64,000 nucleotides of DNA. Source: Pseudomonadota bacterium. Its GTDB lineage: Bacteria; Pseudomonadota; Alphaproteobacteria; Paracaedibacterales; CAITNM01. Both the position numbers and the translations under genes were made by a program. The stretch spans positions 263,144-327,143 of the forward strand of contig JBKCOJ010000005.1 of NCBI GenBank assembly GCA_046309815.1, given 5' to 3'. The notes beneath the pieces were generated by a model. It saw only the letters and a list, made by a program, of their open reading frames with translations. It was not told where the DNA came from and searched no databases. Positions 2,795 through 10,321 of the stretch are shown one piece after another. The stretch's first letter is position 1, and each line of letters starts with the position of its first letter.

Positions 2795-4123
2795 ATGTCA
2801 CCTACAACACTGTCAAATGTTTATAAAGTTCAGTGGCATGAGGGAATGCTACTAAGCCCTCAGCACTTTCAATACAACGAACAAAGAATTGAGCAACTTC
2901 TTTACACACACCTGCTTTCTAATGCTTACACGTGCTGGGGTGTCTTAGAGCTCGATATTGATAAAAATTTATTAAATCAAGGTATTTTGGAGTTTACGCA
3001 CATTTTTGCAGTGTTACCGGACGGATCTGTTGTTCTTCACAGCCTAGACAATAAAAACACTGCATCGCAGAACACATCTCTTCGTTATAATTTAAATAGT
3101 CTAGAGCTCAAAAGTTCAACTGAAATTACTATTTGTTTATGCCTACACCAAACAACAGATAACAAAAAACGTTATGATTCAATTGAATACTCTAACATTA
3201 CAGATGAAAACAGCCCGGATAATGTTATTAATTTACCTATTTTGCGACCCAAAATTTTTCTCAATATAGGAGAGGTCCCAAATGAATGTGTAGGGTTTCC
3301 GATTATAAAGCTAGATTTTGATGGAAAGCAATTTTCTTTGCGACCATTTCTATCTGCATCTTTAAAAATACCGGAGAATCATGCAATTAGAAAAAATCTA
3401 GCAGAAATTACCTTAAATCTACGTCAAAAAGCCGCATATTTAATTAATAAATCACAACAAGTAACCTCGCCTTCCTTATTACGAGAAACATTGCAAACGC
3501 TAAAACCACTCATTTCTGCTCTTTGCATTCTTGAGCCAATAGCAACCATTGAAAAACTTCATCCTGAGCGCCTATTTGATCAATTACTAAACGTTGCCGC
3601 TCACTTGTTACCTCTTCAAACCACACAAATTCCTAAAGTTCTACCGACTTATAATCATTTCAATCCGAGCGATAGCTTGGATTATTTTTTAAATCTTTTC
3701 GAAAAAACAGTTTCATCTATTCAACAACGCTATTTAAGTATTCCATTTCATCAGCAAGAAAGATTGTTTTACTTACACATACACCCGAATTATCTAAACG
3801 ATGATTTGCATATAGGCTTCCGCTGTCCACCTGGCATGAGCGAAAAGCAAATGCATGATTGGGTACAAGAGTCAATTATCAGCGCTGACGAAAAAATTGA
3901 AGTCGTAACCACGAGGCGAATTTCCGGAGCACAAAGAACATTATTAAATAATGATCAACTAGGAGACTTAATACCAAATCCAGGGACCCTTATTTTTACT
4001 ATTAAAAAAGGAGATGAATTTATTAAGGCTAAAAATAATTTAAATATTTTTAATCCAGGAGATAGTCCAGAAAAAAGGCCTATAGATATCACCCTTTTTG
4101 TTTCGCAGAATGATTCTCCATGA
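2795..4123 (+). CDS. tssK: Type VI secretion baseplate protein TssK (ImpJ/VasE family)
   Basis: N-terminal VQWHEGMLLSPQHFQ signature of TssK. 442 aa, the typical size. Confidence 0.9.
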   Translation: MSPTTLSNVYKVQWHEGMLLSPQHFQYNEQRIEQLLYTHLLSNAYTCWGVLELDIDKNLLNQGILEFTHIFAVLPDGSVVLHSLDNKNTASQNTSLRYNLNSLELKSSTEITICLCLHQTTDNKKRYDSIEYSNITDENSPDNVINLPILRPKIFLNIGEVPNECVGFPIIKLDFDGKQFSLRPFLSASLKIPENHAIRKNLAEITLNLRQKAAYLINKSQQVTSPSLLRETLQTLKPLISALCILEPIATIEKLHPERLFDQLLNVAAHLLPLQTTQIPKVLPTYNHFNPSDSLDYFLNLFEKTVSSIQQRYLSIPFHQQERLFYLHIHPNYLNDDLHIGFRCPPGMSEKQMHDWVQESIISADEKIEVVTTRRISGAQRTLLNNDQLGDLIPNPGTLIFTIKKGDEFIKAKNNLNIFNPGDSPEKRPIDITLFVSQNDSP

Positions 4124-4920
4124 AAATGCTTAATCTCTTTCATCATGGCATCATAAGTACTGAATTTGACGCGTTCTATTATGAGCTATTGCGCGTGAAA
4201 GAAGCCGCTTTAAGAAGCAGCAGCGCTTCCCCTCTCGCAGCAGAAGAACAAATTGATGACCCAAAAACAATAACAGTATCTGGGCCAGTTTTGTCATTGC
4301 AAGAAAGAGTCGTTATTTTTTTTAATCAACAACGTGAAAAGCTTCATCGAGTTTCCATTGGTCCAAATGCAATTTTTATACAAGAAGCATTATATGTTTT
4401 TATCACATTGGCCGATGAAATCATGATAAATCTGCCTTGGCATGGGGCAGATTATTGGAGAAAAAATTGTCTAGAAACTAAAATCTTTCAAACACAAGTC
4501 GGTGGAGAAAAAATATTTACCCAAATAGATAGCCTTTTAAAAACTAACGATCCTCTTCAACGAGAGCTCGCTAGAGTTTATTTATTATCACTCTCCTTGG
4601 GATTTCAAGGTCGGTTTCGCGAACAAGATAATCATCAAATTCTTTCATATAAACAGCAACTATTCAGCTTTATCTATCATCGCTCGCCCAGATTGATTCA
4701 AGGTGGATATGATAATTTGCTCGATGATTCATTAATGTCTGTCTTCACAGAAACTCCCACAAAAGGGCTGCCAGATATACGACCATGGTCACTAGTCGCT
4801 CTCAGTGTCATAATCATCTATTTATTCGTAAGTTATGGGGTGTGGACTATTATCTCGCAAGATCTTCATGAAGTTCTTCAGGGTATTTTTCACCTTACAA
4901 AACAAGGCCCGGTAATCTAA
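4120..4920 (+). CDS. tssL: Type VI secretion membrane protein TssL (DotU/IcmH family)
   Basis: DotU core (LADEIMINLPW ... YLLSLSLGFQGRFR) followed by a single C-terminal TM helix (WSLVALSVIIIYLFVSYGVW). No peptidoglycan-binding extension. ATGA overlap with tssK. Confidence 0.85.
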   Translation: MKMLNLFHHGIISTEFDAFYYELLRVKEAALRSSSASPLAAEEQIDDPKTITVSGPVLSLQERVVIFFNQQREKLHRVSIGPNAIFIQEALYVFITLADEIMINLPWHGADYWRKNCLETKIFQTQVGGEKIFTQIDSLLKTNDPLQRELARVYLLSLSLGFQGRFREQDNHQILSYKQQLFSFIYHRSPRLIQGGYDNLLDDSLMSVFTETPTKGLPDIRPWSLVALSVIIIYLFVSYGVWTIISQDLHEVLQGIFHLTKQGPVI

Positions 4921-9167: not shown

Positions 9168-10321
9168 TGAGCTATAACTCTCTTGACACCCACAAAAAGC
9201 TACTGGAACCAATAGCAACAAATAATAAAGCAGGAGATTGGTTGCGCTACGATCCTCTTTACGTAAAAATTCGTGACGCAAGGCGTGAGGAAAACGATGG
9301 GTTGAGTCGAGAAAGTTGGGAGGGGGAAATAAAAAGCGCCAACTGGCAAGAAGTCGAAAGCTTAACCCTTGATCTACTAGAAAACAAAACTAAAGACTTG
9401 CAGCTTTTTTGTTGGCTAATAGAAGCAAGACTGCATCTATACGGATTTGATATTTTTGCAGAAGATATATCTTTATTATTAAAGTTTATAAAAGCTTTTT
9501 GGGAAGACTGCCACCCCTCAAAAAAAGAAGACCCAAACCAAGAGTTTCGTGCTCATATTTTAGAATCTTTTTTAAGATCGACAACACAAACCATTATCTC
9601 CGAACCCTTTAAAGAACTTGCGTCGATACTTGATCTGCCCATAAATTTAGCGCTGTGCTATGAAAATGACACTCTGGAACGATTATCAAAAAAGGGCGGC
9701 GACGCCAACAATGCTTATCAAAAGGCTTTGGCAAATGGTCTCATCACGATAGGAAGAATTAGAAATGCTTTTTCAGAAGTACAAAAAGAAAAAGGAGAAG
9801 CAAAAAAAGCAACCCTAGAAGCTAGCATAAAAAATTTAAATGAAATTAGCCAAATTATAGATACAGAAGCGAAAGAAAACGCCCCTGATTTTAGCAAATT
9901 AACAAACCACTTACAGGAAATGGTTGGGTTATACAGCCTATCCAAAAAATCCACACCACAAAGCGATAAAAAAACAGAAGACACCATCACAACATTATCA
10001 GAAATCATCCTTACTGATAATGAAAGCCCCCCCGAAGAAAAAGAGATAAACACCAGATCGGAAGTCTACCAGACAATTCGTCAGCTCGGAAAATTTCTTC
10101 TAACCATTGAACCACACAGCCCAACCCCAGCTCTTTTGAAATTAATCGGAGAATGGGAAAATAAAACGCTATCACAAATTTTAAAAGAACTTCAATCTAT
10201 CCAACCAGAAACCCGATCTCTTCTGGAGTTACTAGCACGAGCAACCCAACAAGAAAAGCAACCCACCATCACAGCCGCAACCCCCGATACAAACGCTCTA
10301 AGCAATATGATTCCAGGTTAG
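9167..10321 (+). CDS. tssA: Type VI secretion protein TssA (ImpA N-terminal domain family)
   Basis: ImpA_N-like N-terminus (GDWLRYDPLYVKIRDARREE) and a conserved C-terminal EPHSPTPALLKL motif. TAATG overlap with tssM. Confidence 0.8.
   Translation: MSYNSLDTHKKLLEPIATNNKAGDWLRYDPLYVKIRDARREENDGLSRESWEGEIKSANWQEVESLTLDLLENKTKDLQLFCWLIEARLHLYGFDIFAEDISLLLKFIKAFWEDCHPSKKEDPNQEFRAHILESFLRSTTQTIISEPFKELASILDLPINLALCYENDTLERLSKKGGDANNAYQKALANGLITIGRIRNAFSEVQKEKGEAKKATLEASIKNLNEISQIIDTEAKENAPDFSKLTNHLQEMVGLYSLSKKSTPQSDKKTEDTITTLSEIILTDNESPPEEKEINTRSEVYQTIRQLGKFLLTIEPHSPTPALLKLIGEWENKTLSQILKELQSIQPETRSLLELLARATQQEKQPTITAATPDTNALSNMIPG

Follow-up and report, generated by a model that had tools for sequence, protein, structure and literature searches.

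A tssK-tssL-tssM-tssA operon beside a probable replication origin, read as one module of a dispersed type VI secretion system in an uncultured freshwater member of the Holosporales

In the Bodocaedibacteraceae, Paracaedibacteraceae and Caedimonadaceae, the core genes of the system for type VI secretion (T6SS) are found at four or more sites, in a conserved arrangement that includes a tssK-tssL-tssM-tssA block, and T6SS genes are transcribed in Candidatus (Ca.) Bodocaedibacter vickermanii (PMC8163844). A 2025 review describes the T6SS as conserved in almost all Holosporineae genomes except Holospora, as probably non-standard, with TssJ and Hcp among the components not readily found, and as the leading candidate for host interaction in these obligate protist symbionts (PMC11909080); PMC9992710 and a 2025 preprint agree with it in passing on the T6SS. 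Here we describe an operon of the same four genes in a 64-kb stretch of alphaproteobacterial DNA (contig JBKCOJ010000005.1), which we refer to as the window; coordinates are positions within it unless a related contig or locus is named. With a probability of roughly 0.85, we consider the locus to be the tssK-tssL-tssM-tssA module of a dispersed (split) Holosporales T6SS, carried by a Finniella/Odyssella-like member of the Paracaedibacteraceae. An earlier annotation made from the letters alone (the sequence-only reading) had implied that a stand-alone operon of this kind is unusual. This was not borne out, as the lone unit is an already published, conserved layout for Holosporales. The four genes are as follows.

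2795..4123, + strand: tssK, 442 amino acids (aa), baseplate subunit linking the baseplate to the membrane complex
4120..4920, + strand: tssL, 266 aa, DotU-type inner-membrane anchor, short form without a peptidoglycan-binding domain
4920..9167, + strand: tssM, 1415 aa, IcmF-related P-loop domain and long C-terminal region
9167..10321, + strand: tssA, 384 aa, ImpA_N N-terminal domain and EPHSP motif

The identity of these four consecutive genes, as proposed in the sequence-only reading, is confirmed by Pfam and NCBIfam models and by matches to solved structures, and the motifs that it quoted were all recovered. TssK scores 188.4 bits against TIGR03353 (cutoff 100) and matches PF05936 (1.5e-28). 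Its motif VQWHEGMLLSPQHFQ begins at residue 12, and the family profile matches the solved TssK structures 5Y0E, 5M30, 6GIY and 6N38 (1e-24 to 1e-26) over residues 9-341. TssA scores 179.3 bits against TIGR03363 (cutoff 160.85) and matches PF06812 (ImpA_N; 4.6e-29), with the EPHSP motif at residue 315 and an N-domain that matches the solved TssA structures 6HS5 (1e-13) and 6RIU. TssK and TssA are T6SS-specific, and both pass equivalog cutoffs. TssL reaches 94.3 bits with the DotU family PF09850 (cutoff 27) and 83.8 bits with the DotU subfamily model TIGR03349, slightly under the cutoff of 89.95; it also matches the solved TssL/VCA0115 structures 4V3I and 3U66. Its single hydrophobic segment is C-terminal (residues 219-247), and there is no OmpA-type extension. 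TssM matches PF14331 (IcmF-related_N; 1.6e-48) and has the Walker A sequence GAKNSGKST at residues 118-126.

The DotU and IcmF families are common to T6SSs and type IVB secretion systems, and weak matches to NF038226 and NF038228 were obtained, which could be taken to mean that the window encodes IcmF/DotU homologues of a type IVB (Dot/Icm-like) system and not of a T6SS. We regard this as extremely improbable, given that the scores are 36.7 bits for NF038226 against a cutoff of 1000 and 23.3 for NF038228 against 50, that the T6SS-specific TssK and TssA pass their equivalog cutoffs, and that no Dot/Icm genes were seen in the window.

Each junction within the operon is a start/stop overlap, as had been noted from the letters and is verified on the sequence: ATGA at 4120-4123 for tssK/tssL, TAATG at 4918-4922 for tssL/tssM, and TAATG at 9165-9169 for tssM/tssA. 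All four open reading frames (ORFs) are full length and translationally coupled, and such tight coupling fits stoichiometric co-assembly of the products.

A search with TssK returned no named close relative, only proteins of metagenome-assembled genomes (MAGs) labelled Alphaproteobacteria or Holosporales. When a single genome was scanned for each species, seven loci had a TssK 67-73% identical to that of the window, all from freshwater MAGs. The label is Ca. Finniella inopinata or Ca. Odyssella sp. for two of the seven and only Alphaproteobacteria or Proteobacteria for the others; TssK of a further MAG, GCA_947487955.1, is 74% identical. CALPGA02 and JBAXJB01 are also among the closest MAGs. 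More distant loci, at 28-38% TssK identity, come from MAGs labelled Paracaedibacteraceae or Holosporales and from Caedibacter varicaedens. The MAG labels are the submitters' own, and the lineage was read from them together with a taxonomy lookup, in which Finniella is placed in the Holosporales, Paracaedibacteraceae. On these sequence comparisons, the organism belongs to an uncultured freshwater lineage of the Holosporales that is Paracaedibacteraceae-like and, within that, Finniella/Odyssella-like. The guess of a host-associated alphaproteobacterium in the sequence-only reading was right.

For the layout of T6SS genes, the ORFs of 87 related loci (L001-L087) were clustered, of which L001-L030 are Holosporales-like. 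In about 30 of the 87, all from other bacterial groups, tssB-tssC-hcp directly follow tssA; examples are Insolitispirillum peregrinum (L049) and MAGs of Stellaceae, Acidobacteriota, Gemmatimonadota, Desulfobacterales and Nitrospirota. Among the Holosporales-like loci, not one carries tssB, tssC or hcp at 10 kb or less from the operon, and this distribution points to fragmentation of a complete system. The window TssM can be aligned near full length (to about residue 1365) with TssM from about 65 related loci, some of which have tssBC-hcp next to the operon. Because it aligns with the TssM of both kinds of locus, the split loci appear to be fragments of the same system and not a different apparatus.

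Pieces of the remaining machinery were seen in relatives. In L002, a TssE gene (TIGR03357, above cutoff) lies 4 kb upstream of tssK, and in the Holosporales MAG L006, VgrG and patatin genes lie 4 kb upstream of the operon. The Holosporales-like contigs L096-L106 carry lone vgrG-DUF4280 (PAAR-like) modules amid housekeeping genes such as ruvAB, uvrA and hflKC. Proteins assigned by name to Ca. Finniella inopinata, to Ca. Odyssella acanthamoebae and Ca. Odyssella thessalonicensis, and to Ca. Paracaedibacter symbiosus are among the best VgrG matches. In the lone modules (e.g., L104 10001-13624), vgrG is followed, with or without an intervening small ORF, by the DUF4280 gene. A LOG-family (LDcluster4) gene precedes vgrG in both L006 and L104, and the patatin phospholipase gene after vgrG in L006 is a candidate effector. 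A Clp ATPase beside the operon in L004 was considered as ClpV and rejected, since it is a housekeeping ClpB that scores above its own cutoff.

Our reading of the locus as split rather than truncated is based on what the literature says of the lineage, on how the genes are laid out in relatives and on the strong conservation of the four proteins, for which no function is known without the tail, and we infer that other T6SS modules are present in this genome. These would be expected elsewhere on the same chromosome as tssB-tssC-hcp, tssG-tssF, tssE and vgrG-PAAR-like modules, an ancestral contiguous cluster (lipoprotein-K-L-M-A-B-C-hcp-E and further genes) having presumably been broken up in this lineage. 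Going by established T6SS biology, the envelope-spanning membrane complex would be made up of TssL and TssM, and TssK would dock the TssEFG-VgrG baseplate onto it. TssA would prime and coordinate the polymerisation of tube (Hcp) and sheath (TssBC), and contraction of the sheath would then fire effectors bound to VgrG/PAAR, most likely into a eukaryotic (protist) host.

Several results weigh against this interpretation. The approximately 84 kb of this organism that were inspected contain no gene for sheath, tube or spike and none for TssE/F/G or ClpV. Within the window, profile hidden Markov models (HMMs) built from the TssB, TssC, Hcp, TssE, VgrG, Clp-ATPase and TssJ-position lipoprotein families of the related loci, supplemented by phmmer seeds for TssF, TssG and ClpV, were run against the six-frame translation of the whole 64 kb. 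There were zero matches at E<=10 for TssB, TssC, Hcp, TssE, TssF, TssG, ClpV, VgrG or the TssJ-position lipoprotein, in agreement with the original observation that the window holds no other T6SS gene. The other genes of the window are flagellar, cell-shape, transport and other housekeeping genes and one secretin; Pfam was applied to ORFs of at least 70 aa in 12-36 kb and to the hard-to-name ORFs of the second half, whose other ORFs were named by eye. Three JGI contigs represent the same organism, with lengths of 348 kb (3300042691 Ga0415385_0000031), 178 kb (3300059636 Ga0568973_0000007) and 47 kb and an identity of 100% or 99.985% over 13 kb; contigs from two other metagenomes are 100% identical over these 13 kb. 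Read on the identical contigs, the flanks of the window (10 kb on its left, 9 kb on its right) contain housekeeping genes only and no T6SS genes.

Searches seeded with TssE, VgrG and TssC likewise gave no match traceable to the same contigs or samples. The TssE seed, from L002, had 48 matches, and the two contexts inspected are complete clusters of other organisms. The VgrG seed, from L006, retrieved many Holosporales VgrGs; none of the three clusters checked is from this organism's samples (3300042691, 3300059636 and 3300008264) or from the assemblies of the closest relatives, and among 20 protein clusters screened (19 of them VgrG) no member was matched to the 348-kb or the 178-kb contig. 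A TssC scan of IMG/VR found one complete cluster, which is unrelated, and a VgrG scan of metagenome contigs showed none from this organism's samples among the matches listed. To these points must be added that, unlike in many relatives, no TssJ-like lipoprotein gene precedes tssK in the window or its clade, that the presumed periplasmic two-thirds of TssM are not recognisably similar to canonical TssM, and that some related MAGs have a split tssM or a truncated tssK (L010, L013, L014).

Such results could be accommodated by a stand-alone membrane-complex module, in which the contractile tail has been lost and TssK, TssL, TssM and TssA are kept for another role, as a repurposed envelope complex or as the partner of a different apparatus. 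The emptiness of the surrounding 84 kb with respect to T6SS-like genes agrees with this, as do the atypical presumed periplasmic domain of TssM and the missing neighbour of TssJ type, and the strong purifying selection on the four genes implies some function. We nevertheless consider it unlikely. No role is known for TssK and TssA where a baseplate and a sheath are lacking; about 30 clusters in which tssBC-hcp are immediately downstream have the atypical TssM and the K-L-M-A order as well; and 84 kb is a small part of such a genome, the chromosome of Ca. Bodocaedibacter being 1.39 Mb.

Whether the locus is maintained or in decay was addressed by comparing the window proteins with those of six relatives of the clade. 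TssK is 69-74%, TssL 69-80%, TssM 72-79% and TssA 55-64% identical to the clade orthologues, and the corresponding values for flanking proteins are 54-64% (GidB), 69-75% (ParB), 64-69% (HemH) and 59-66% (HemE). Nonsynonymous divergence (dN, Nei-Gojobori) is 0.13-0.26 and synonymous divergence (dS) is saturated, with dN/dS of approximately 0.05-0.11, in the same range as for the housekeeping neighbours. As judged from these substitution patterns, the four T6SS genes are under clear purifying selection. Conservation and low dN/dS together indicate that tssK-tssL-tssM-tssA is maintained by selection and is not a decaying remnant. The parB-to-hemH interval, whose comparison the sequence-only reading had proposed, has the same tssKLMA synteny in the closest relatives: gidB-parAB, tssKLMA and hemH-hemE are arranged identically wherever the contig reaches far enough, and the hemH-hemE order is the same in L001, L009-L012 and L088-L090.

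A T6SS remnant that is being lost in the course of genome reduction would suit a genome that appears compact and host-associated, and there are broken ORFs to be explained. On a near-identical contig (L088; 99.985% over 13 kb), a 1-nucleotide (nt) indel (window position ~4314; L088 11326-12127) splits tssL into ORFs of 68 aa and 170 aa. The indel falls within a run of T (a T-homopolymer), and tssL is unbroken on two other contigs, which are 100% identical. A sequencing error or a rare variant is the probable cause. As for the broken tssM or tssK in related MAGs, the fact that hemH is also truncated in L010 suggests assembly errors rather than decay. Inactivating mutations in orthologues had been named as a sign of decay; broken ORFs were seen in a few MAGs, and the tssKLMA ORFs are intact in most of the related genomes examined. 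With four full-length, coupled ORFs in the window, conserved as much as or more than ParB, HemH, HemE and GidB, and with dN/dS as low as it is, the decaying-remnant explanation is largely refuted and we hold it to be very improbable.

Of the two possibilities left side by side in the sequence-only reading, a split T6SS is the one supported, by the literature and the relatives; a remnant or repurposed apparatus is disfavoured by the conservation and by the K-L-M-A order shared with complete clusters. For annotation, this means that the locus should be described as one module of a dispersed Holosporales T6SS and not as an orphan or repurposed apparatus, and its well-conserved sequences, from an abundant uncultured freshwater lineage, are added comparative data.

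TssM has unusual features. A hydropathy scan flags one hydrophobic segment only, at N-terminal residues 14-48; residues ~424-444 resemble a membrane helix by eye, below the hydropathy threshold. This gives partial support to the topology expected of TssM, with the cytoplasmic P-loop domain set between N-terminal membrane helices and a later one. TIGR03348 covers residues 88-481 only, with 208.7 bits (under the cutoff of 388), and alignment by hhalign with the canonical Azospirillum TssM has 100% probability over profile columns 94-465 only, and then ends. The ~930 C-terminal residues are without a Pfam match, and neither the single sequence nor a profile of the C-terminal region finds anything in Pfam, TIGR03348 or the PDB. 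These C-terminal two-thirds of the protein (~950 residues; ~450-1415, window 6270-9167) are presumed to be periplasmic. The region is unlike canonical TssM across the whole TssM subfamily (L001-L087), and because complete clusters are included, its atypical character is not specific to the window locus.

A second feature of the subfamily is a lipoprotein gene directly before tssK, which is present in 51 of the 87 related loci, including many complete clusters and several Holosporales-like loci (e.g., Caedibacter varicaedens). The family is characterised by a lipobox Cys and by DAN..SA and W.W..PGQ motifs. Examples of this TssJ-position lipoprotein, directly 5' of tssK and within L031-L087, are:

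L049 9194-9703: TssJ-position lipoprotein
L039 8597-9232: TssJ-position lipoprotein
L058 9185-9967: TssJ-position lipoprotein

An attempt to identify the family as TssJ gave only weak matches to TIGR03352 (E 0.004-0.03), and the identification was not accepted; the family has no Pfam or PDB match. In Ca. Bodocaedibacter, a tssJ-like gene is located at another site (PMC8163844), and the present genome may have a copy outside the window. A speculative alternative, which we think rather doubtful, is that the T6SS membrane complex of this clade may work without any TssJ-type lipoprotein, the long TssM region itself reaching or anchoring in the outer membrane. If true, an intracellular symbiont firing from within a eukaryotic cell would have a membrane complex of distinct structure. 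Both the unrecognisable, presumed periplasmic region of TssM and the uncharacterised lipoprotein in the TssJ position may interest structural biologists of the T6SS, as traits of a wide subfamily and not of the window in particular.

The module lies between parAB/tRNA-Tyr and hemH-hemE-oriC, a placement in the sequence-only reading that was upheld by Pfam, ARAGORN, DnaA boxes and GC skew. Its surroundings are:

2528..2613, - strand: tRNA-Tyr (GTA), left boundary of the module (ARAGORN)
2614..2794, + strand: intergenic region 5' of tssK, 181 nt, A+T-rich, presumed promoter region
10269..12256, - strand: hemH and hemE, right boundary of the module (PF00762, PF01208)
12340..12619, no strand assigned: probable oriC, with seven DnaA-box-like sites, two of them perfect TTATCCACA, in the hemE-proximal intergenic region

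On the left, the gene order is gidB, parA, parB, tRNA-Tyr. Upstream of tssK, a sigma-70-like match (TTGCTA-17-CATAAT at 2739-2767) is a candidate promoter only, and the scan for promoters and terminators gave no more sites than in shuffled sequence. On the right, tssA and the convergent hemH overlap at their 3' ends, over 53 nt. The cumulative GC-skew minimum, at ~12.4 kb, coincides with the cluster of DnaA boxes at 12340-12619, which is probably oriC, as predicted from these sequence features. The genes of gidB-parAB-tssKLMA are all transcribed towards the probable origin. hemH and hemE (window 10300-12250) have 43-52% G+C, compared with ~35-38% across the rest of the window.

Other genes in and around the window were noted in passing. 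The window has a lone secretin gene (PF00263; 60406-62172, - strand), and ~8 kb past its end there is a pilin-like N_methyl gene (L108 18212-18835); the two would fit the 'incomplete type IV pili' that have been reported in Holosporales. Flagellar genes are present at 28-36 kb and 48.7-50.6 kb. The bacterium is presumed to be host-associated. Of the flagellar genes, fliW, flgK and flgI were assigned by Pfam, and flhB and fliR by eye only, and a 301-aa ORF adjoining flgK may be flgL. About 4 kb to the left of the window start (L088 5681-6574), a 297-aa gene has faint matches to the Pfam family Mito_carr (mitochondrial carrier); as family f40, it is conserved across the clade (L001, L009-L011 and L014). 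Finally, a 469-aa ORF at 39684-41093 without a Pfam match has an N-terminus that is hydrophobic and was taken by eye for a signal peptide, and two copies of a ~50-aa repeat rich in Lys, Ala and Glu.

When the locus is compared with known systems, the type IVB IcmF/DotU (IcmH) proteins have the DotU and IcmF N-terminal domain families in common with the window proteins, but the latter score far under the type IVB equivalog cutoffs and are accompanied by TssK and TssA and by no Dot/Icm genes. The canonical T6SS-i systems (Azospirillum argentinense plasmid p4, L111; enteroaggregative Escherichia coli (EAEC) Sci-1, for which structures have been solved) are homologous in the TssK shoulder and neck, the cytoplasmic domain of TssL, the ImpA_N domain of TssA and the cytoplasmic P-loop domain of TssM. 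They differ in that neither sequences nor profiles detect any similarity between the presumed periplasmic part of the window TssM (~950 aa) and theirs, that the window TssL is without a peptidoglycan-binding domain, and that the window genes are accompanied by no TssJ, TagF or TagH and are not clustered with tail genes.

In the contiguous clusters outside Holosporales (e.g., Insolitispirillum peregrinum L049; Acidobacteriota, Gemmatimonadota and Desulfobacterales MAGs), TssK, TssL, TssM and TssA are orthologous and in the same order, and their TssM aligns near full length at 23-29% identity and has the same long, atypical, presumed periplasmic domain. Next in these clusters come tssB-tssC-hcp(-tssE), and many of the clusters have the TssJ-position lipoprotein gene in front; the window locus has neither.

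The nearest counterpart is the split T6SS of the Holosporales (Ca. Bodocaedibacter vickermanii, Paracaedibacteraceae, Caedimonadaceae). Compared with the described members, the window organism represents an undescribed freshwater lineage, with a parAB/oriC-adjacent position of the operon that only its own clade has; TssK identity to the more distant Holosporales loci is no more than 28-38% (Caedibacter varicaedens and those labelled Paracaedibacteraceae), and companion modules are seen in its relatives only, the window genome being known from ~84 kb. The apparent lack of an obvious TssJ, noted for the group, holds likewise at the window locus, and in both cases the same four genes stand in the same order, isolated amid housekeeping genes.

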